A stretch of 64,000 bases of DNA from assembly GCA_041178425.1 (NCBI GenBank), contig JBEGVH010000006.1, forward strand, positions 160,001 through 224,000, given 5' to 3'. This document shows, piece by piece, positions 3,946 to 64,000 of the stretch (position 1 is its first letter; each line of letters starts with the position of its first letter). Below the pieces are notes generated by a model. That model did no database searches, had not been told where the DNA came from, and was given only the letters and a program-made list of their open reading frames with translations. The translations under genes and the position numbers were made by a program. This DNA comes from Pseudomonadota bacterium. GTDB taxonomy: Bacteria > Bdellovibrionota > Bdellovibrionia > Bdellovibrionales > Bdellovibrionaceae.

Positions 3946-5394
3946 ATGAAATTCAATTTTGAAACGACGTATTTAAATTTGCCTAAAGATTTTTATCGAG
4001 AAAATCGTCCGGAAAAATGTTTGGCGCCTGAACTCCTGTGTTTCAATCAAAGTTTGGCGGAGTTCCTGGAGCTTGGGGCGTTTGAGGCTGAGAAAGATTT
4101 GCCTCTTCTCTGCGGCGAGGTTTCTAATGAAACGGCGCGCCCCTTCTCGCAAGCTTATGCTGGTCATCAGTTTGGTTATTTTAATAAACTCGGAGATGGT
4201 CGAGCCCATGTGCTTGGTGAGCATGTCACTCCATCTGGACAGCGGTTTGATATTCAATTGAAAGGTTCTGGTCAAACTCCTTACTCACGCAATGGTGATG
4301 GACGGGCAGCGCTCGCCCCGATGTTGCGTGAGTATTTGATTAGTGAAGCCATGCATCACCTTGGAATACCAACCACTCGCAGTTTGGCGGTGATTGCAAC
4401 GGGAGATGTAGTTTATCGAGAACAGCCGTTGCCTGGGGCTCTTTTGGTGCGAGTGGCTTCTAGTCATATTCGCGTCGGGACCTTTCAGTTTGCAGCCACG
4501 CTCCGTGATGCCCATCAACTCCGTCAATTTGCCGATTACGCTATCGACCGACACGCTCCAGAATGGCAAAAGCATAAGAACCGCTATTTTGAGTTTTTTA
4601 GAAAAGTGGTCAAAAGCCAAGCGAGTCTCATTGCTCAATGGATGACTGTTGGTTTTGTTCACGGTGTGATGAACACCGACAATATGTCTATTGCGGGTGA
4701 AACGATCGACTACGGGCCCTGTGCGTTTATGAATGAATATGATTTATCCACCGTCTTTAGCTCGATTGATCGGCAGGGGAGATACGCCTTCGGTCGCCAG
4801 CCAGAGATGGCGTCTTGGAATTTAACCCGCTTGGCGGAGTCTCTTCTTCCTCTCTTTAGTGATCAGCAAGAAACAGCCATCGAAATGGCCAATAGCGCAT
4901 TGAAAGAATTTGAAATCCTTTTTCACGACGAATGGCGAAGGGGGTTAAAAAACAAATTGGGTCTCATTGGCGAGAATGATGGCGACACTGAATTGATCAA
5001 TGAGTTTTTAGAGATTCTGCAAGCGCATCGCGCTGACTTTACAAATACTTTTTGTGAGCTTATTCATTGGCTCAAAGGTGGATGTCTGAATATAGAGTCG
5101 CCCTTGCAAAAGCATGACCGCTTTAAATCTTGGCTCTCTCAATGGAAGAAACGAATCAACGAAGGCTCCGATGATGTTGTGGAGCTTATGCAGAAATCAA
5201 ATCCAGCCCTCATACCTCGAAATCATCTCGTCGAGGCGGCCCTCGCTTCAGCGTCTGAGAATAACGATTTCGAGCCTTTTAATTCGCTCATAAAAGCGCT
5301 CTCTCAGCCTTTCAATCACTCGATGGTCGACGCAAAATACCAGCAAGCTCCAGGGGTTGAGTTTGCTGGTTATAAGACGTTTTGCGGAACATAA
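3946..5394 (+). CDS. selO: Protein adenylyltransferase SelO/YdiU
   Basis: YAGHQFG, LGDGRA, QLKGSG.TPYSR.GDGRA, HGVMNTDN, IDYGP, C-terminal TFCGT. Confidence 0.95.
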   Translation: MKFNFETTYLNLPKDFYRENRPEKCLAPELLCFNQSLAEFLELGAFEAEKDLPLLCGEVSNETARPFSQAYAGHQFGYFNKLGDGRAHVLGEHVTPSGQRFDIQLKGSGQTPYSRNGDGRAALAPMLREYLISEAMHHLGIPTTRSLAVIATGDVVYREQPLPGALLVRVASSHIRVGTFQFAATLRDAHQLRQFADYAIDRHAPEWQKHKNRYFEFFRKVVKSQASLIAQWMTVGFVHGVMNTDNMSIAGETIDYGPCAFMNEYDLSTVFSSIDRQGRYAFGRQPEMASWNLTRLAESLLPLFSDQQETAIEMANSALKEFEILFHDEWRRGLKNKLGLIGENDGDTELINEFLEILQAHRADFTNTFCELIHWLKGGCLNIESPLQKHDRFKSWLSQWKKRINEGSDDVVELMQKSNPALIPRNHLVEAALASASENNDFEPFNSLIKALSQPFNHSMVDAKYQQAPGVEFAGYKTFCGT

Positions 5395-55818: not shown

Positions 55819-56478
55819 TCATTGTTTATCTTCCGGGACAAGAAGCTCAACAACATCTTTCGTTCGATCATAAAAACAAGCCAGGCTCATTTCCCAAAGG
55901 GTGTTTTTGGGAATCACTCCGTCTTTAGCGGCCTGAGCGTCAGAAACTTTCGAATAGTCTCCATAATGCTGTAGCTTAAGGTTCGGAACTTCAGGGTTGC
56001 GAAACTTCATCGTCGTCTGAACAATATCAGATGTTTCTCGGTCGCTAAAATTAATATCAGCAGCAAATACATCGCCAATGACTGTCGTATTTCTCTCTTC
56101 GATAGCCTTGGCACCATTCTGGGTCTCATGAAGCAACAAGAAGCTCAGAGACATAGAGGGTCTATCAGCGAGCCTATCCTTATCCTCAGTTTGAACATAA
56201 AGATCCATCTTGTACCCTTTATTCAAATTGAAAATTAAGCGGCCACTCCGGCAAGTTGCAGACCATGTCACATTGCACGACGAAATAGGGATTTCTATCT
56301 TTTTAAACTTAGTATCAACAACCCGATCCGACTGTGGATTATTAATAAAGGAATGAATGAGCATACAGGCTACCCGTTTCACTGGGGGCTGCGGGGTCGG
56401 CTCTGAGGTCGCCTGAGGTGCCGCAAAGACCTGATTTAGACTAAGCACTGTTAGAATAATTATTGGATAGAGTTTCAT
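55819..56478 (-). CDS. Secreted hypothetical protein
   Basis: AAGGAGG RBS; signal peptide ending VFA. Confidence 0.8.
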   Translation of the reverse strand: MKLYPIIILTVLSLNQVFAAPQATSEPTPQPPVKRVACMLIHSFINNPQSDRVVDTKFKKIEIPISSCNVTWSATCRSGRLIFNLNKGYKMDLYVQTEDKDRLADRPSMSLSFLLLHETQNGAKAIEERNTTVIGDVFAADINFSDRETSDIVQTTMKFRNPEVPNLKLQHYGDYSKVSDAQAAKDGVIPKNTLWEMSLACFYDRTKDVVELLVPEDKQ

Positions 56479-56648
56479 ATTAAACCTCCTTTATTTGGTT
56501 TGTGGGACACTCTTTAACTCAATGCACCAATCAGAAATAGATAGAAATTTAGTACGCTCCCTAAGGTAAGGCGTCCATAAAGTCATTCTCGGCCTTTCTT
56601 TTGCAGAATTTCGTAGTAATCGAACCCATTTGAGACCAGGAGGTTCAG

Positions 56649-57107
56649 GTGTTATTTGGGTGCAAAACATTTTTACGTTTGCTGCCAGGAAAAGGCCTCA
56701 AACCCCTCCTCCAGGGAGGCTTCTCTATTTTATTTATCGGTCTCTTTAGTACACTTTTTTTATTTAGCAGTAGAACTTGGCCAACCCTAAATTTGTTTTA
56801 CTCTTCAGATACTAGCCTAAATCGTTCACCGGCAGAAAATGGCGAGGGCCGGGGTGGTGGTGGCTCAGCTCTCTATTGGAATAATGTTCTTGGCCCCAGC
56901 ACATTTTTGGACTTGGTCAATGACTCACGTTATTCGACCTCAAACGATCAAATAGACGAACCTCTGAAAACTTTCCATAAACGAATTCGAACCTCCGTGG
57001 AGTTTCAGATCCTTGGGTTTACAGGAATAAGCAATTCAAATGGTTTTTGGCTTTCCCAAAGCCCCCCCGAAAGCCGGTCGCAAAAGGCCTCCAGAGGGAG
57101 CGTTTAG
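56649..57107 (+). pseudogene. Possible truncated exported protein running into the repeat element
   Basis: TM segment followed by RSPA; the C-terminus reads through the non-coding 47 bp repeat. Confidence 0.3.
57023..57069 (+). repeat. 47 bp direct repeat, left copy
   Basis: AGGAATAAGCAATTCAAATGGTTTTTGGCTTTCCCAAAGCCCCCCCG, identical to 63954-64000. Confidence 0.95.
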
Positions 57108-57168
57108 CCTCTGGATCCAGTTTTCTTGTGGGGCAAATATTATGTTGAGGTGACGGAAGGGCTAATCA

Positions 57169-58023
57169 GAAAAGTCTAGGGGAGTTGGCGGTCGTATGGC
57201 CACTCGGCGAACCCTTGATACAAGATTTGATCACGGGGCTCAGTTTTACCGACTAAAAGAAGATATTATTTCTCTTCATAAACTTTGGTGTGACCAAGCT
57301 GTAACTCAGTCATGGTTTGAATCCGACGAGGGAAATCATTGGTGCGCTAAACTTGGAATGACGACTCTGGCGAAAACTCTGGCCTCAAATCTCGAGATTG
57401 GCCTAGAAAAACAAATAAGCACCATCACTTTTGAAAATGGTTTGTGGAAAATCGCATCGGATAAAAACGAAGAGTGGATTTGTCGCAACCTCATTCTCAC
57501 TTCACCTATGCCTCAATCGGTGAAGCTTCTCGAAGGAGCAATAAATCAAATGAGTTTTAAAAAAGATAAATTTCTCGAATTAAAAAAAATTGAGTACACC
57601 AAAGCCCTTATCGCTCTTGTGACACTAGAAGAAGAAATATTTATTCACGAATCAGGCTATCTTGAATTTAGCTCGGGTGATTTCTTTTCAATTGCTGATC
57701 AAAAACGAAAAGCAGTTAGTGAAACGCCAGCTCTTAGCATAACCATGTCACCTCAATTCTCAGAAGAATTTTTTGAAGAAAAAGACGATGTGATACTTGC
57801 AGCGATCTTAAAGAAATTTTCTAGTCAGTATCCTGAAATGAAAATCAAAGCAGCAGAGCTGAAAAAGTGGCGCTATTGTCGTCCAACGTCTCAAGATAAA
57901 AATCTCTTTTGCGAAATTGCCAACAATTTATTTTTAATTGGAGATGTCTTTGGCGGCAGCAGTCTCCTCGGGGCCGTGAGATCCGCTGAAAGCTTATGTC
58001 AGCATTTACAAAGTCGAATATAA
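57169..58023 (+). pseudogene. 5'-truncated renalase-like FAD-dependent oxidoreductase
   Basis: Frame starts EKSRGVGGRMATRR..FDHGAQF just after TAA 57163-57165; the N-terminal GxGxxG motif is missing. Confidence 0.75.
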
Positions 58024-58025
58024 AT

Positions 58026-58445
58026 ATGTTTAAAAATAATACGCATTCAACAATTTTAAAAATAGCTGCCATCTATAATTTAGTTTGGGGAGCTTTTATA
58101 ATCTTGGCCCCCAACGCTTTATTTGATTTTGCAGGCCTTCCTCGCATGCAAAACTACATTGGCATCTGGCAGTGTGTAGGAATGATCGTTGGAGTTTACG
58201 GCATTGGTTATTGGGTCGCGGCCCTTGATCCCAATCGCCACTTGCCAATTGTCTTGGTGGGTTTTTTAGGAAAAATTTTTGGACCCATTGGATTTGTTCA
58301 AGCGTATTATCAAGGCGTATTTAACGCTAAATTTGGTTTGACAATTCTTACCAATGATATCATTTGGTGGATTCCTTTCTATCTCATTCTTAACTCTAAT
58401 AAAGATGAAATCATAAAAACATTTAATCCATTCAAGGAAAAATAA
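58026..58445 (+). CDS. Conserved 4-TM protein (family often labelled alkyl hydroperoxide reductase/SelL-related membrane domain)
   Basis: AAIYNLVWG, WQCVGMIVGVYGIGY, DP.RH.PIVLVGFLGKIFGPIGF, NDIIWW. Confidence 0.75.
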   Translation: MFKNNTHSTILKIAAIYNLVWGAFIILAPNALFDFAGLPRMQNYIGIWQCVGMIVGVYGIGYWVAALDPNRHLPIVLVGFLGKIFGPIGFVQAYYQGVFNAKFGLTILTNDIIWWIPFYLILNSNKDEIIKTFNPFKEK

Positions 58446-58447
58446 TC

Positions 58448-58915
58448 ATGACTATTAACATACAAAAACGACTTCACCATCGCACTCCATACTTACTCAT
58501 TGATGAAGTGATAGAGCACTCGCATAAGCAATTGCACGCAAGAAAACTCTCTACTCAAAATGATTTCTTTCAAGCAGGCCATTTTCCAAATGCTCCAGTT
58601 GTACCGGGGGCGATGATGCAAGAGATGACGACCCAAGCAGCGGGGCTTCTTATTGCAGAATACTACTCACCGGTAGCAGATTATGATAGCGAAAAAACTA
58701 AAGGCTATGCTTTAGGAGTGCTCAGAGCAATTCACCAAGCAAAGTATAAAAAATTTGTTCGCCCACAAGATATTCTAGATATCAAAGTTGAACTCATAGA
58801 AAAAATTGAAGATGCTTTTTATTTTAAAGCACACATCGAAGTTGATGGAAATAAAGTTATGAGCAATGAGTTTACACTCATTAATATTGCGGAAGAAAAG
58901 TTAATCGGAAATTAA
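58448..58915 (+). CDS. FabZ-like 3-hydroxyacyl-ACP dehydratase
   Basis: LHHRTPYLLID, FFQAGHFP..PVVPG.M.QE. Confidence 0.85.
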   Translation: MTINIQKRLHHRTPYLLIDEVIEHSHKQLHARKLSTQNDFFQAGHFPNAPVVPGAMMQEMTTQAAGLLIAEYYSPVADYDSEKTKGYALGVLRAIHQAKYKKFVRPQDILDIKVELIEKIEDAFYFKAHIEVDGNKVMSNEFTLINIAEEKLIGN

Positions 58916-59156
58916 ATTTTTTCAAAAATGAAAAATATTGTCCTTGAAGTAGTTTGATTATTTAAATTCAAAATTGATTCGTGCTAACTCACCAGAAAAA
59001 TTCTTTTGAATGAAAGATATTTTGGTGAGAATTGCGAATCAGTCCTGCAAGATTTGCTTTGCTACTTCTCACCAGTTTTTTAATCTTAGCATATTTCAAT
59101 ATGTGTTTTAAAAAATTTAAGCTGAATTAAATTTCTCAGGCATGAGACTTAACTAG

Positions 59157-59903
59157 TTAAATCGCCGACCAGCCACCATCGTTTGCGAGAACCGCTCCAG
59201 TGATATTGCTCGAGTCATCGCTAGCAAGCCACAAAATACTTGCCGCCAGTTGCTCAGGCTCGGCCATATTTGGTGAGATGCCTTGAAACACAGGAGTTAG
59301 CCTGTCGTTAGCAAGAGCAGATTTATAAGGAGCTTCGATCGATGTTTTCACTCCACCCGGAGCGACGACGTTGCAGCGAATGCCTTTATCTGAATACATA
59401 AAAGAAGTGCTTCTAGATAAACCAATCAGCGCGTGTTTGGAAGTTGTATAAGTAGCTCCAGCACACGCTCCGCGAAGTCCTGCTTCAGAACTTATATTGA
59501 CGAAATTTCCCTTACCAGCTTTAAGCATCAGAGGAAGAGCTGCGCGAGTGAGTCGCATGGGCCCTGTTAAATTGACCGCAAGAACTTTCTCCCACGTCTC
59601 ATCGTCGACTTCAGCAACCGGAAGAAATCCATCCATGATGCCAGCGTTGTTGATAACAATATCAACTTTTCCTTCACACGCTTTTATAAGAGCATTTGCT
59701 GTTTCTTGTTTTGAAACATCTCCGGCCACTGTGATGATGGCATATTCTTTTAATTGTGATTTTAATTCAGACAAGCGAGACTCATTCCAATCACTAGCAA
59801 TAATTTTGGCGCCTTCTTTGGCGAGTCGATGCACACAAGCTTTGCCTATACCTGCGCCTGCACCAGTGACGATAACGGTTTTATTTTGAAATCTATTATC
59901 CAT
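59157..59903 (-). CDS. SDR family oxidoreductase
   Basis: TGAGAGIG, NNAG, YTTSK, DGG; AGGAGA RBS. Confidence 0.95.
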   Translation of the reverse strand: MDNRFQNKTVIVTGAGAGIGKACVHRLAKEGAKIIASDWNESRLSELKSQLKEYAIITVAGDVSKQETANALIKACEGKVDIVINNAGIMDGFLPVAEVDDETWEKVLAVNLTGPMRLTRAALPLMLKAGKGNFVNISSEAGLRGACAGATYTTSKHALIGLSRSTSFMYSDKGIRCNVVAPGGVKTSIEAPYKSALANDRLTPVFQGISPNMAEPEQLAASILWLASDDSSNITGAVLANDGGWSAI

Positions 59904-59995
59904 TAAAATCTCCTTGAAGATAAACACTTGGAGATCGTTGCATCTGATTTGTTGTGTGAATATGATAAAAATTAGTTTAAAAACATAGATAAATT

Positions 59996-60169
59996 AAATA
60001 AAAAGAGAGGATTGCTCCTCCCTAAACCATTAGAGTAAATCCCTTAACGATCTTAAAATCATTGCTAGTAATTTTAAAATCAGGATAATAGCCTCTAACA
60101 ATTTTAGAACCTTGAACATCCTTGCCTTCCTGAAAGATTGACCTTCATTGGTCAGGAGCTCACGGTTTG
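59996..60169 (-). ncRNA. Candidate structured RNA element, copy A
   Basis: Homologous to 63292-63463; covarying hairpins; ends GGGAGGA-GCAA-TCCTCTC-TTTTT. Confidence 0.6.
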
Positions 60170-60243
60170 TATCTTTAAATGTTTATGGTAAAATATTTTT
60201 ACCCTAAGCTACGGTTTGCTAGACCGTATATTTTAGAACCTTG

Positions 60244-60270
60244 AAAACCCCTCATACTACGAGGGGTTTT
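60244..60270. terminator. Intrinsic terminator downstream of the 60340-60600 gene
   Basis: AAAACCCCTC-ATACTAC-GAGGGGTTTT. Confidence 0.8.
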
Positions 60271-60339
60271 TTATTTGTCCTGATTTCAAAATGAATACGT
60301 ACAATTTTTTTGAAATGAATTGATAAAAATCTGAAGATT

Positions 60340-60600
60340 TTATTTTTTATCTTCTGAGTTACCCCAGCGCCACTTAAGTGGCTCTCCATAGCGATACATA
60401 ATGTAAAAATTTGCAATGGTGATGGCAACGATATAACCATACCATATGTAAAGAACTGTTTTACTCATCGGGTGGATTAAAATAAGTGGAGCAACGATAG
60501 AAGTGGAATATCCCAGAGTAATAAGCCAGCCCTGCCAAGTACAGGGAGTCCAACCAATTCCATATTTTTTTCTTTTAAACCAAATGATTTTTTCACTCAT
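60340..60600 (-). CDS. Small 2-TM membrane protein
   Basis: WFKRKKYGIGWTPCTWQGW ... GEPLKWRWG. Confidence 0.8.
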   Translation of the reverse strand: MSEKIIWFKRKKYGIGWTPCTWQGWLITLGYSTSIVAPLILIHPMSKTVLYIWYGYIVAITIANFYIMYRYGEPLKWRWGNSEDKK

Positions 60601-60684
60601 AGTTTTATTATAAATCGAACTTGAACTTCCTGATTCATTTGTTAGACTTTTTTAATATTTAATTTGAATAAGAAGGTAGTAGCA

Positions 60685-61428
60685 ATGGCCAAAACAATTT
60701 TAATTCCAATTCCATCTAATGATTTTGATCCCACAGAATGTGCTGTTCCTTGGAAAATTCTTGTAGAGAATGGAGTTCAAGTTAAATTTGCAACTCCAAA
60801 TGGTGAAGTTGCTCAATGTGATCAAAGAATGCTTCACGGGTATGATCTTGGACCACTTTCTCCTGTACTCTCTGCTGACAAGAACGGCAAAATGGCATAT
60901 TTTGAACTTGAAAAAAATCATGAATTTCAACATCCCCTTGCTTGGGAGAATATAGTACCAGAGCAATTCGATGGAATTATTCTTCCAGGAGGACACGCTC
61001 AGGGAATGAAAGAATATCTTGAATCTGAACAACTAAAAAAATGCGTGAGTGTTTTTTTTCAATCCAATAAACCTGTGGGAGCCATTTGCCACGGAGTTGT
61101 CTTGGCCGCACGGAGTTCTATAAACGGAGTGAGTATTTTAAAGGGACGCAAAACAACGGCTCTTCTTTCGAGTCAAGAAATGCTGGCGTGGGGCTTAACC
61201 TGTTTGTGGTTGGGAAGTTATTATCGAACTTATTCTCAAACGGTAGAAGCTGAAGTGAAGTCTTGTTTAAATTCTCCAGATGATTTTTTGAAAGGACCGG
61301 TGCCCATCAAGAGAGATAACATGAATGATTTAGAAAGTGGTTTTACAGTTCGCGATGGAAATTATCTATCTGCTCGCTGGCCGGGTGATGCTCATCGATT
61401 CGGAATTGAGTTTTTAAAAATGCTTTAA
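60685..61428 (+). CDS. DJ-1/PfpI (type 1 glutamine amidotransferase-like) protein
   Basis: DFDPTE.AVPW, LPGGH, GAICHG, SARWPGD. Confidence 0.92.
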   Translation: MAKTILIPIPSNDFDPTECAVPWKILVENGVQVKFATPNGEVAQCDQRMLHGYDLGPLSPVLSADKNGKMAYFELEKNHEFQHPLAWENIVPEQFDGIILPGGHAQGMKEYLESEQLKKCVSVFFQSNKPVGAICHGVVLAARSSINGVSILKGRKTTALLSSQEMLAWGLTCLWLGSYYRTYSQTVEAEVKSCLNSPDDFLKGPVPIKRDNMNDLESGFTVRDGNYLSARWPGDAHRFGIEFLKML

Positions 61429-61439
61429 AAATAATCTTT

Positions 61440-61484
61440 AAATAATTTCAAAATTATTGCTGGTAATTTAAAGATTAGGATAAA
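61440..61484 (-). repeat. Partial degenerate third copy of the structured element
   Basis: TCAAAATTATTGCTGGTAATTTAAAGATTAGGATAA vs copy A TTAAAATCATTGCTAGTAATTTTAAAATCAGGATAA. Confidence 0.6.
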
Positions 61485-61512
61485 TCCATGGAATTATCTT
61501 AAGAAAATTCAT

Positions 61513-61992
61513 TTAAAAACTCACACTGCAAGTTTCTCGAATTAAAAATCGTTTGTAAATATCACATGAGTATATGCTGATCACAGTAAGTTCATTTTTA
61601 TTAATTTCAACTAATTCTTTAAATGAACTTAAAATATGCCCTCCACATTGACGGTCGTCACTCCCTGTTCCATCAGTCTTGTAAGTAATCATACCATTTT
61701 CAACATAGCGATCTTCGTCTTGAAAAAATGAAACAACATAAGGGTTGGATTCTCTATATTGGGGAAATCTATTATCGTTATTTCCATCTACTTCGATAAT
61801 AAATGCACTACCCATATTATCGGCAACAATTCTGCAATGACCTTGCTTAACGATTTGGTTGTTCTGAGTTACTTTAAACTCACCAGGACGATTTAAAAGT
61901 CTAATTATTTCTGTTGGGAGATTGAAATTATTTGCAAGAGTATCTCTAGGTATCATATAGATCGACAGGAGCGATAAAAGTAATAGTTTCAT
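61513..61992 (-). CDS. Secreted hypothetical protein
   Basis: Signal peptide; 4 Cys; AAGGA RBS. Confidence 0.7.
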   Translation of the reverse strand: MKLLLLSLLSIYMIPRDTLANNFNLPTEIIRLLNRPGEFKVTQNNQIVKQGHCRIVADNMGSAFIIEVDGNNDNRFPQYRESNPYVVSFFQDEDRYVENGMITYKTDGTGSDDRQCGGHILSSFKELVEINKNELTVISIYSCDIYKRFLIRETCSVSF

Positions 61993-62139
61993 CTTAAATC
62001 CTTTTAAAAATATTTTTTAAAAGATAACATTAAATTTAAGTGGTTTATCTATTTAATTACTTATAGGGTAAAGATTACACTTTATTGCTTTGATACCCTT
62101 CATTTTATGAAATTTTTCTGAAATGAAATCTGCAAGCGA

Positions 62140-63201
62140 TTACTCACACTGCTCAGGATTTTTAAAAGCTGCGCGAATTTGTTTGCTGGTTTTTAGTGAT
62201 AATGAATCGACTGTCCAATCTTCGTAATCATGTTGATAAAGCTTTTCGTAAATGAAAGCTAAAGTTCCCACGCGAATTCTGTTTCCAATAATTCCTTGAG
62301 TGAGGTATCCCCAAAAATGATACTGAAGCCCCGGGATATCATCTCCGTCGACAAGCTTTTCCATTTTATAAGAAACGACTGATGAAGTTGTGCGATTGAC
62401 AGTTAGAGCGTCCCCGCTGAAAATCCAAGGGATGACTCCCAGGGCGACAATGGGATCACCATAAATCTCAAGTGCCTTGTGAAAAAGTTTTTCAGGTGTA
62501 ACTGAAAAATTTTCTTGTTGTAATAACCACAAAAATAGTGGAGAAGAAAAATGATTATACTTTTGCGACTCATAAATAAATTGATTGAACATTTTATGAT
62601 CAGGATTTCCAACTCCAAGTTTAAAAAGATTCTTCTCTTTTACTCCCTCTTTTTTCTGCATAATGGGAAGACCGTTGCTATCGAGAGAAGGAAAAGAATA
62701 GTTAGCAACAGCAGGCATATGCTCTTCGATTTGTTCAATTAGGTTAGCTTCATTTCTTAATTGAAATTTAGGCTCTTCGCCATTGAGATACGAAATGTGG
62801 CGCATTCTTGCGAGGTGGATAAAAGATGAAAGATAATTCTCTGTAGGATCTTTCAGCTCTCTTTTGGGATTGCCATAAAGAATAAAGGCATTTTGCAAAT
62901 AGTATTCAGAGCGATCCATTGGAAAGCCGGGTAGACCTGTGATTTTTTCAATAGGTTTCGGCAGCGACAATCCAGCGGGGATTGGATAGGCATCAACCCA
63001 AGGATCAATATCTTTTCTTAGAATATCTAAAATCTCGACTCTAATTTTGTGAAGTGATTTATCAGGATATGTTTTTTTAATTGATTGTGAAACCTGGCAA
63101 GCAAACTTATCCATGCGCTCTTTTGTGAAATAAATATCAAGCGCAAAAGAAGAATGACTTGCGAGGGCAGTTAATATTAAAATGATTGTTTTTTTCAACA
63201 T
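62140..63201 (-). CDS. Secreted hypothetical protein
   Basis: Signal peptide ending SFA; 353 aa; contains YHFWG. Confidence 0.75.
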   Translation of the reverse strand: MLKKTIILILTALASHSSFALDIYFTKERMDKFACQVSQSIKKTYPDKSLHKIRVEILDILRKDIDPWVDAYPIPAGLSLPKPIEKITGLPGFPMDRSEYYLQNAFILYGNPKRELKDPTENYLSSFIHLARMRHISYLNGEEPKFQLRNEANLIEQIEEHMPAVANYSFPSLDSNGLPIMQKKEGVKEKNLFKLGVGNPDHKMFNQFIYESQKYNHFSSPLFLWLLQQENFSVTPEKLFHKALEIYGDPIVALGVIPWIFSGDALTVNRTTSSVVSYKMEKLVDGDDIPGLQYHFWGYLTQGIIGNRIRVGTLAFIYEKLYQHDYEDWTVDSLSLKTSKQIRAAFKNPEQCE

Positions 63202-63291
63202 GGGAAAAGAATAGCAAGATTTACAATAGTCGAAGCACGGATTGAAAAAGCTTCATAGGTGAAAAAAATATGTCTAACGTTTTGACAGTTA

Positions 63292-63463
63292 AAATAAAAA
63301 GGGAGGATTTCTCCTCCCCCAAATCTTAAAGATACTTCCTTAACGACTCTAAAATTATTGTTAGTAATTTTAGAATCAGGATTAGTAGCTTTAATGATTT
63401 TAAAACCTTGAGAATCCTTGCCTCCAAAAGATCGCCTTCATTGGCGCGGAAGCTCTCGGCTTG
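63292..63463 (-). ncRNA. Candidate structured RNA element, copy B
   Basis: Homologous to 59996-60169; ends GGGAGGA-GAAA-TCCTCCC-TTTTT. Confidence 0.6.
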
Positions 63464-63961
63464 AAAAAATATCCCTCAATAGAATTCAGCATTGATCTAA
63501 ATCCAGCTAAAATTGATCTAAAATCAGAAGGGATTGATATTGCCATTAGACCTGGAATTCAAAAAGATTCTGGTCTATTTATTCGGAAATTAGATGAAAT
63601 TCAACCCGCGCTTTTTGCCTCATTAGAATATATAAAAAAAAATGGTCGGCCTAAAAATTATGAAGATTTGAAAAAACATAAATTAATTTCAACCAAGATA
63701 ATAAATCTCGATGGCGAATCTTATAAGCCTGCCATTCTTGCTAATAGTATGTCTTTTGTAAAACAAGTCACCCTTGAGAGTGCAGCCATAGGATGCTTGG
63801 CCGAAGAATTTATTATGAATGAAAAAAAATCAGGTAAACTTGTTCGCTTATTTCCAGAAAAAAATTTACCTAAATCTCCCATCTATTTGGTTTTTACCAA
63901 TAAAAAATTAGCCAAGCGGGTTTCTTTACTGGTTCAAGAAATAATTGAATTTAAGGAATAA
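63461..63961 (+). pseudogene. 5'-truncated LysR regulator (substrate-binding domain only)
   Basis: KYPSI...IDL..EGIDIAIR, ASLEYI...GRP....DL..H, G.LVRL; no HTH; begins exactly at the edge of element B. Confidence 0.75.
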
Positions 63962-64000
63962 GCAATTCAAATGGTTTTTGGCTTTCCCAAAGCCCCCCCG
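63954..64000 (+). repeat. 47 bp direct repeat, right copy (may extend past the window)
   Basis: Identical to 57023-57069. Confidence 0.95.

Follow-up and report, generated by a model that had tools for sequence, protein, structure and literature searches.

An element of about 173 nucleotides (nt) occurs twice, as copy A and copy B, in the 64,000-nt stretch of contig JBEGVH010000006.1 analysed here (the window). An earlier note made from the letters alone had described it as a non-coding structured RNA. Judged by its sequence, the minus-strand element is the message for a peptide of 27 or 29 residues and not a non-coding RNA, and it is probably one half of a self-contained cassette of ~385 bp that is built like a type I toxin-antitoxin locus. 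This design is suggested by the combination of a tiny gene for a hydrophobic peptide, a message fold masking the translation start, a divergently oriented gene for a complementary small RNA (sRNA), and a multi-copy, patchy distribution with relics. No Rfam, Pfam or NCBIfam family claims the cassette, and its copies, scattered over a few genomes of presumably predatory bacteria, seem to form a family of RNA-controlled toxin-antitoxin cassettes that has not been described before.

A conserved small reading frame in the repeated element

Copies A (59996-60169) and B (63292-63463) could be aligned end to end with 77.8% identity over 176 columns (E 1e-29, BLAST search of the 3.06-Mb, 43-contig genome), in good agreement with the three-quarters identity estimated by eye in the earlier note. 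The partial copy that had been noticed between them was found again by BLAST (fragment C, Table 1), and no copies other than these three were detected by BLAST in the 3.06-Mb genome. A first covariance model (CM; R1) was built from copies A and B, and a second model (R3) from 13 sequences. The 35 loci searched yielded 37 CM matches at E<=1e-5, distributed over 10 genomes and 8 metagenome contigs. The element is thus multi-copy, as had been supposed, and patchily distributed.

The best-conserved single-stranded block of the element, GGAGGCAAGGAUGCU, consists of a Shine-Dalgarno (SD) motif, five bases and an AUG codon. A small open reading frame (ORF) that encodes a short hydrophobic peptide and has its own ribosome-binding site is one of the features by which type I toxin genes are recognized. 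An SD-like motif was found not more than 14 nt from the start codon in all 36 copies, and the start codon was ATG in 34 of them, ATT in one and ATA in one. The frame extends over 29 codons in 23 copies and over 27 codons in ten, so that 33/36 copies have a frame of conserved length; the remaining three frames (20, 26 and 37 codons) are visibly damaged. The predicted peptides are rich in Leu, Ile and Lys, are amphipathic, and follow the consensus MLKALKxLELIILILKLLAxILxLL. Their identity to the peptide of copy A ranges from 33 to 76%, and no signal peptide was found.

When the 31 distinct coding sequences were compared pairwise, 4247, 2515 and 5398 differences were counted at codon positions 1, 2 and 3, respectively. 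The 4442 single-base codon changes comprised 2306 synonymous (52%) and 2136 non-synonymous ones. All 31 sequences had a stop codon in the +1 frame, and 18 of them also had one in the +2 frame. This substitution pattern indicates coding selection on the small ORF. The long hairpin, the GUUAAGG motif and part of the 5' stem, which had been read as parts of a non-coding RNA, fall within or around the coding frame, and the same sequence appears to serve the fold and the peptide alike. With a conserved frame of 27 or 29 codons preceded by its own SD motif, the non-coding status assigned to the element could not be upheld. Exact look-up in a collection of 15 billion proteins found none of eight peptides tried, which implies that gene callers have missed them.

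The message fold and its covariation

The minus strand of copy A folded with -57.2 kcal/mol (z -5.0 relative to shuffled sequence) and that of copy B with -60.6 kcal/mol (z -5.5). For the plus strand z was -0.8 in copy A and -5.2 in copy B. Since the plus strand of copy B also folds well, fold energy settles the strand for copy A only. The preference for the minus strand expressed in the earlier note therefore holds with regard to the conserved, strand-specific fold, but the energy argument applies to just one of the two copies.

In an alignment of 33 homologues that was fitted to the structure of the CM and hence somewhat favours it, 90.9% of the cells contained standard pairs, and compensatory changes were present in 30 of the 51 base pairs. 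The covariation score was 0.392, compared with 0.240 +/- 0.007 for shuffled alignments, and was reached by none of 500 shuffles. When the pairing partners were slid by 1-3 columns as a control, pairing fell to 43-60% of the cells. The covariation postulated from the comparison of two copies was thus confirmed in the larger alignment, and for each of the helices that had been named. Compensatory changes were found at all three pairs of the short hairpin with the AAUGAA loop, at 8/13 pairs of the long hairpin, at 5/7 pairs of the enclosing 5' stem and at 5/8 pairs of the terminator helix, which was paired in 100% of the cells. The terminator was also recovered by a pattern scan: in both copies the minus-strand RNA closes with a G+C-rich hairpin that has a four-base GNRA loop and is followed by a U-run, as had been proposed. 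The message is expected to end at the terminator GGGGAGGA...UCCUCCC.

Masking of the translation start by the message fold is a further characteristic of type I loci. The helix covering the SD motif was paired in 95.2% of the cells and varied on one side of its pairs only; for the helix that includes the GGA preceding the AUG the value was 99.0%. With the SD motif and the AUG both buried in helices of the fold, little translation is expected from the full-length message. Two additional pairings were less convincing. The AGGAU/AUCCU pseudoknot suggested in the earlier note can form in 83.5% of the cells, but compensatory changes were found at none of its five pairs and 265 of 500 shuffles did equally well, so that the pseudoknot gains no support from the alignment but may still form. 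Pairing between the SD motif and the 3' arm of the terminator is possible in 97.6% of the cells; it showed no compensatory changes and did not exceed the controls.

The apical loop of the 5' domain, CAAUGAAG, is near-invariant in the 33 sequences (60141-60148 and 63437-63444 of the window, minus strand). A leader ORF starting in this loop was considered and rejected: its AUG lies in frame 0, 1 and 2 relative to the toxin AUG in 13, 12 and 10 copies, respectively, and the length of the frame varies. Because the loop AUG is in no conserved frame, the loop is regarded as an RNA signal.

The statement that the RNA belongs to no known family was corroborated. A permissive Rfam scan of positions 56000-64000 gave 14 matches (E up to 10), the best with E 0.15, all driven by terminators and none near its gathering score. 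At the gathering score, scans of the locus in genome G196 (see below) and of 17 further loci detected tRNAs only. A CsrB/RsmZ-type sponge was also considered and dismissed, with PrrB_RsmZ scoring 19.8 bits (gathering score 44) and RsmY 14.6 bits (gathering score 57), and with the GGA motifs lying in covarying stems.

A predicted sRNA gene upstream of the message

Conservation between the copies extends ~170 nt beyond the 5' edge of the fold. In this segment the extended -10 motif TGnTAnnnT is present at a fixed position, ~30 nt upstream of the message and on the opposite strand, in 35/36 copies, and a C/G-rich terminator hairpin in 33/36. The hairpin is followed by a run of mostly six U (range 5-10 in 33 units). 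An adjacent gene for a complementary small RNA, as expected in a type I locus, is thus predicted from a promoter box and a terminator. The earlier note had treated the element as standing alone and had overlooked this putative partner gene, which lies on the opposite strand just upstream of copy A.

In copy A the predicted sRNA is made up of a 5' hairpin, whose loop UUGCUAG lies at 60216-60222, followed by an unpaired seed (60230-60245) and by a terminator hairpin with U-run (60243-60275). Across the family the seed is a stretch of 14-18 nt that stays single-stranded, and the order hairpin, free seed, terminator was the lowest-energy fold in 29/33 units. These folds were computed from single sequences; RNAalifold applied to a MAFFT alignment gave only a 10-pair consensus because of misalignment.

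In most units a conserved block with the consensus ATTTCAATTCAGAAA follows the sRNA terminator (Table 1). The strict pattern was found in 14/33 units, and more were recognized by eye. The block has partial dyad symmetry, is often preceded by TTCGC and forms the outer boundary of the cassette; it could serve as a promoter, as an operator or in recombination. Coverage of the locus by contigs of four metagenome runs was fragmentary. Loose ends occurred at the terminator hairpin of the sRNA, and two joints were weak, their shorter side having 30-32 letters; no conclusion was drawn from these contigs.

Copy-specific complementarity between sRNA and message

The sRNA module and the message module are direct repeats on one DNA strand, therefore their transcripts can pair only if one of them is transcribed from the opposite strand. 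Watson-Crick stretches of at least 7 nt were counted, with positions numbered from the A of the AUG. They clustered at three co-linear sites, +3..+25, +51..+57 and +85..+101. A stretch beginning between 0 and +15, covering about codons 2-7, was present in all 31 units that had any stretch; the site in the hairpin loop (+51..+57) was occupied in 30 of these, and the site spanning the stop codon and the approach to the terminator (+85..+101) in 21. Two of the 33 units (L042 and L045) had no stretch of this length. The complementary total was 1008 nt, as opposed to 437 +/- 60 nt (maximum 588) in 200 shufflings of the partners.

The loop of the sRNA hairpin and the loop of the long hairpin in the message were exact reverse complements in all 28 units in which both could be located, in four variants. 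Two further units matched by eye, and L042 did not. The mean energy of the seed duplex was -22.0 kcal/mol for own pairs, a mean reached by none of 10000 permutations, and -11.8 kcal/mol for other pairs. The own target ranked first for 19/33 sRNAs, and 26 distinct target sequences were found, each with a matching seed. The same specificity was seen within multi-copy genomes, where own pairs had a mean of -22.1 kcal/mol (n=26) and other pairs -11.9 kcal/mol (n=60); 16 of these 60 foreign pairs were at -15 kcal/mol or stronger.

Distribution of the family and neighbouring genes

In the source genome R1 detected copies A and B only, and no convincing match came from 150 other genomes belonging to its family (best E 0.0145 and 0.0336). 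When 151 genomes of the order were sampled, a single one, G196, gave two strong matches (133 and 82 bits) 1.1 kb apart; among 109 genomes of its family G196 was again the only one with a match. A search pattern derived from blocks common to four copies picked out 8 metagenome contigs holding 9 strong matches. One of these loci, L022, carries two tandem cassettes with a start-to-start distance of 383 nt. The same pattern had no match in viral contigs, and an earlier pattern hit in a Bacillota metagenome-assembled genome was put down to chance, since the CM did not match there at E<=1. With R3, the class sample yielded G000, G196 and one weak match only, and the phylum sample added two genomes, both of another family (f22). 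In a 151-genome sample of f22 eight genomes had matches, including six of the seven members of one genus, with 1-5 dispersed copies each. The relatives G463, a complete genome, and G397 had two strong matches apiece.

The gene downstream of the fold was co-directional in 7, convergent in 25 and absent in 4 of the 36 copies. The stop codon of the convergent gene was often within a few bases of the terminator. Of 55 neighbouring ORFs 28 had a Pfam match at E<=1e-5, to functionally unrelated families including dihydrofolate reductase, TrmD, BioY, GNAT acetyltransferases, Fic, proteases and a BLUF sensor. None of the 55 was recognized as a transposase, an integrase, a reverse transcriptase, an RNA-guided nuclease (Cas, TnpB, IscB), or an export or immunity gene. 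Because the neighbours are unrelated, a leader for one kind of gene and an RNA serving a neighbouring protein are ruled out, and a co-occurring protein gene, which the earlier note suggested looking for beside other copies, was not found among the 55 ORFs. The riboswitch, ribozyme and guide-scaffold readings offered in that note were abandoned on these grounds. For a riboswitch or other cis-acting leader the co-directional gene is too rare and the Pfam families of the neighbours too diverse. For a guide-RNA scaffold a Cas9-, IscB- or TnpB-type neighbour is missing among the 55, and a conserved terminator directly follows the fold.

In 3 of 17 loci tRNA genes were noticed ~0.3-1.1 kb from the cassette (L016 3643-3715, L033 350-422 and L025 2508-2580), which fits residence in integration hot spots. 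The cassettes of G196 (L015 1-6400, contig C67) lie within a run of co-oriented small accessory genes, all convergent with them; judged from their translations these are kinase-, phosphotransferase-, GNAT-, glyoxalase-, TetR- and nucleotidyltransferase-like, and include an excisionase-type helix-turn-helix (HTH) protein. This arrangement prompted a comparison with integron attC sites, which was rejected in view of the ~385-bp unit with a coding frame and two terminators, and of the mixed orientation of the genes in the window. In G196 a second repeated non-coding unit of ~240-310 nt was seen after each cassette (L015 2191-2430 and 3332-3645, partial 4876-4975). It has its own terminator (GCCCAG...CTGGGC stem, T-run) and possibly an extended -10 box, and does not occur beside other copies; a further gene for a small RNA or a small protein is conceivable here.

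Genomic setting of copies A, B and C

The features of the window are listed in Table 1. Copy A appears to be a complete unit consisting of message, ORF and predicted sRNA gene (60186-60275, plus strand), whereas copy B is, by the same signals, a relic lacking the sRNA gene and the AUG. Neither a hairpin nor a -10 motif was found upstream of copy B. All of the other 35 copies have the upstream module, and just one of them shares with copy B the lack of an AUG. By eye, the sRNA of copy A would still pair with most of the target in copy B. A LysR-type regulator gene truncated at its 5' end adjoins the 5' edge of copy B. The coincidence of the two breaks suggests that one rearrangement removed both the start of the regulator gene and the sRNA module of copy B.

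Copies A and B and fragment C lie in a 6.9-kb segment of low G+C content (0.35-0.40; genome 0.44) that is bracketed by two 151-bp direct repeats. Only partial matches to this repeat (39 and 66 nt) were found elsewhere in the genome. The other carrier loci have 30-41% G+C, so the 6.9-kb stretch may derive from a low-GC carrier lineage. The genes in the segment code for an SDR protein, a DJ-1/PfpI-like protein, a FabA-like protein and secreted proteins of unknown function, in addition to the toxin-antitoxin copies; there is no integrase among them. When the whole island was used as query, a plasmid collection gave a single match of 338 nt (a Leptospira plasmid), which lies under the DJ-1-like gene and outside the element, and a phage collection gave none.

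Table 1. Features of the window related to the predicted cassette and its surroundings (CM, covariance model; SD, Shine-Dalgarno)
Feature	Position	Strand	Basis and remarks
151-bp direct repeat, left copy	57018..57168	+	98% identity over 151 nt to right copy
Copy A, folded message (predicted toxin mRNA)	59996..60172	-	5' stem domain, long hairpin, terminator; CM 207 and 171.6 bits
Intrinsic terminator of copy A with U-run	59996..60023	-	stem 60004-60023, GCAA loop; pattern scan
Copy A small ORF (predicted)	60030..60119	-	29 codons + stop; translation MFKVLKLLEAIILILKLLAMILRSLRDLL
Long-hairpin loop CUAGCAA	60062..60068	-	exact complement of sRNA loop; loops compared unit by unit
Predicted sRNA seed target	60101..60116	-	codons 2-7 of ORF A; perfect 16-nt match to 60230-60245, starts at +3; duplex -20.0 kcal/mol
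SD-like GGAAGG of copy A	60125..60130	-	5 nt before AUG; GGAGG in most other copies; paired in consensus fold
Extended -10 box TGGTAAAAT of predicted antitoxin sRNA	60186..60194	+	TGnTAnnnT motif
Predicted antitoxin sRNA, ~75 nt	60201..60275	+	terminator scan, 33-unit alignment, folds, complementarity
Conserved block, consensus ATTTCAATTCAGAAA, weak copy	60303..60326	-	alignments; ~48 nt beyond sRNA terminator in most units
Fragment C, decayed piece of hairpin/ORF region	61440..61484	-	BLAST 85% over 34 nt (61450-61483); CM partial, 17.1 bits, E 0.062
Copy B, decayed orphan message	63290..63466	-	fold and terminator (63299-63320) retained; CM 192-207 bits
Copy B frame	63326..63415	-	29 codons, ILKVLKSLKLLILILKLLTIILESLRKYL; AUU replaces AUG
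LysR-type regulator gene, 5' end lost	63461..63961	+	Pfam LysR_substrate profile positions 30-205 of 209; no HTH domain
151-bp direct repeat, right copy	63950..64099	+	window ends at 64000; rest in contig (L006 9950-10099)

A probable type I toxin-antitoxin cassette and its alternatives

The ORF, the message fold, the signals of the sRNA gene and the copy-specific complementarity can be considered established at the level of sequence. The probable type I design is in keeping with further traits typical of such loci, namely occurrence in several copies, in tandem in L022, a patchy distribution, and a peptide that has never been called as a gene. In such a cassette the extended -10 promoter would drive the ~75-nt sRNA from the strand opposite to the message. 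The sRNA would dock and then zip over the start of the ORF, blocking entry of the ribosome, and the resulting duplex would probably be marked for cleavage. Upon loss of the sRNA the stable folded message might be opened or processed, and the peptide would then insert into the inner membrane, leading to arrest or death of the cell.

Transcription of both RNAs, toxicity of the peptide and the order of events are inferred. Several observations weigh against this interpretation. Fold energy does not favour either strand of the upstream module: the sRNA orientation was more stable in 16/33 units, with equal means, so the strand of the sRNA was deduced from the -10 box, from the U-run and from the complementarity. 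For the message itself a promoter could not be designated, since a -10-like hexamer was present in 22/36 copies and in 73% of shuffled segments of the AT-rich spacer; its start might lie further upstream, in which case it would overlap the sRNA gene. At the third pairing site copy A has no stretch of at least 7 nt. The sRNA of L042 fits the message of L049, which lies on the same contig (C4) of genome G584, far better (-27.8 kcal/mol) than its own (-14.2 kcal/mol). The match of the two modules could partly reflect gene conversion between adjacent direct repeats. The evidence from peptide similarity was also weak. The best Pfam match, TisB_toxin (PF13939), was obtained for 12/29 peptides with a best E of 0.017, and copy A scored 11.7 bits, below the cut-off of 25. 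Comparison with Escherichia coli TisB by hhalign gave a probability of 28.6% over 16 columns, and no peptide matched an NCBIfam family. As a separate observation, the L042 unit, whose loop mismatches its own message, looks like a hybrid.

An sRNA-controlled small membrane protein with a benign role, for instance in modulating a membrane protein, its level being tuned by the sRNA, would account equally well for the ORF, the fold, the sRNA and the pairing. We consider it unlikely, because several copies per genome, tandem arrangement, patchy occurrence, residence in a low-GC island and decayed relics are traits of selfish type I loci, loss of the sRNA goes together with loss of the AUG in the one copy concerned, and such heavy burial of SD and AUG is typical of toxin messages. 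The same element could be a cationic lytic peptide used outwardly, against prey or competitors, and silenced by the RNA lock until needed. The peptides are indeed amphipathic and Lys-rich, three of 29 gave weak matches to Melittin (best E 0.075), and the carrier is presumed to be a predatory bacterium. These matches are far below threshold, the peptide has no signal sequence, the neighbours include no export or immunity gene, and the architecture is that of intracellular type I toxins, so this use of the peptide is hardly to be expected.

A non-coding structured RNA (an sRNA, a riboswitch-type leader, a ribozyme or a guide scaffold), in which the ORF is a by-product of AU-rich hairpins, could explain the strongly covarying fold, the conserved terminator, the conserved loops and junctions such as CAAUGAAG and CUAGCAA, and the lack of an Rfam match, the weak PrrB/RsmZ score reflecting several GGA motifs. 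It leaves unexplained why frame, frame length, SD spacing and AUG are conserved and why codon position 2 is the least variable and half of the single-base codon changes are synonymous. Together with the scarcity of co-directional downstream genes and the unrelated neighbours, none of them of the Cas, TnpB, IscB or reverse transcriptase type, this makes a non-coding RNA most improbable. Very little also speaks in favour of a miniature mobile repeat, resembling a miniature inverted-repeat transposable element or a relic of an insertion sequence end, that is conserved through recent spread rather than function. Dispersed copies in always different contexts, the frequent position at the 3' end of a convergent gene (25/36), the nearby tRNA genes and the truncated LysR gene beside copy B would fit such a repeat. 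However, there is no transposase among the neighbours, and the copies have diverged widely yet have kept base pairs, frame and sRNA match, which argues for selection and not for recent copying. In a repeat analysis neither copy A nor copy B had its two ends linked by an inverted repeat, although no search was aimed at terminal inverted repeats or target duplications. Mobility and toxin-antitoxin function are compatible with each other.

Significance of the family

Type I systems are difficult to find because gene callers overlook peptides of such small size and because these peptides evolve rapidly. A literature search, partly confined to titles and abstracts, found no description of a type I system in Bdellovibrio or Bdellovibrionota. 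According to two surveys, in the parts that bear on distribution, known type I families come mainly from enteric bacteria, Firmicutes and Helicobacter (PMC2887945, PMC8594479). Neither Fozo et al. 2010 (PMC2887945) nor the T1TAdb paper (PMC8594479) mentions Bdellovibrio in the main text; their supplementary tables of candidate ORFs, with thousands of entries, could hold related peptides.

The comparative data on the family are unusually rich, comprising a message fold backed by covariation, a predicted sRNA and dozens of naturally co-varied sRNA/target pairs, which form a ready-made table of compensatory mutants. A family of this kind would offer a model for multi-site antisense recognition. 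It would also provide an island marker in these genomes and a set of orthogonal RNA regulators. A more speculative proposal, to which we attach rather low probability, is that the copies form a natural set of mutually orthogonal RNA locks, with 26 seed and at least four loop variants. The address of each copy would be composed of the seed, the loop and a 5' end fitting the 3' region of the message, and up to five switches might operate in one genome with hardly any cross-talk; the ~385-bp unit may also move between lineages of different classes, settle in genomic islands such as the low-GC one of the window, and stabilise them. Should the peptide also act in predation, a type I module would have acquired a novel function. 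More generally, a "novel non-coding RNA with covariation" can turn out to be the folded message of a small protein.

Comparison with known type I systems

The predicted cassette most resembles tisB/istR-1 of E. coli. TisB is likewise a hydrophobic, amphipathic peptide of 29 residues (K-12 record), and in both systems the complementarity arises from a short direct repeat common to the two genes. The sRNA gene is upstream, divergent and non-overlapping in both, as seen in the K-12 annotation and in the portion of the T1TAdb paper on gene layout (PMC8594479), where an sRNA located 5' of the toxin gene without overlap is given for TisB/IstR1, ShoB/OhsC, Zor/Orz and DinQ/AgrB. The two systems differ in the distance between the genes, IstR-1 being annotated ~360 nt from tisB, in the host lineage, and in the number of copies, with several per genome here and one in the case of tisB. 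The pairing site of IstR-1 is in the 5' untranslated region, well away from the start codon, and tisB is controlled by the SOS response. In contrast to that site, the seed of the predicted sRNA covers codons 2-7 and is accompanied by two further sites. The peptide is below the Pfam gathering threshold for TisB and no Rfam family was found at E<0.1 over positions 56000-64000. Because membership in the TisB family is thus not supported by sequence, the cassette was classed as a new family within a known kind of system, presumed to work in the manner of tisB/istR-1.

The tandem genes z3289 and z3290, later named zorO and zorP, resemble the tandem pair in L022. These genes of enterohaemorrhagic E. 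coli encode 29-amino acid proteins and lie in tandem repeats that are alike outside the coding region as well, as described in the relevant part of PMC2887945. The gene layout of zorO/orzO, shoB/ohsC and dinQ/agrB is the same as that of the cassette, according to the passage on layout in PMC8594479. On the other hand, no sequence relation between these systems and the cassette was found. They are reported from enteric bacteria (PMC2887945, Table 1), and a three-site pairing with a loop-loop match is not described for them in the cited parts of these papers.

Unlike in hok/sok and aapA/isoA, the predicted sRNA has a gene of its own upstream of the message, provided that the message does not begin further upstream than assumed, and unlike in hok/sok there is no conserved leader ORF of the mok kind, the upstream AUG being scattered over the three frames. 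For aapA1, regulation via folding of the toxin mRNA has been reported (eLife 2019, PMC6733600, in the part consulted here). The likeness to both systems lies in the message itself, whose fold hides the translation start and is conserved by covariation.

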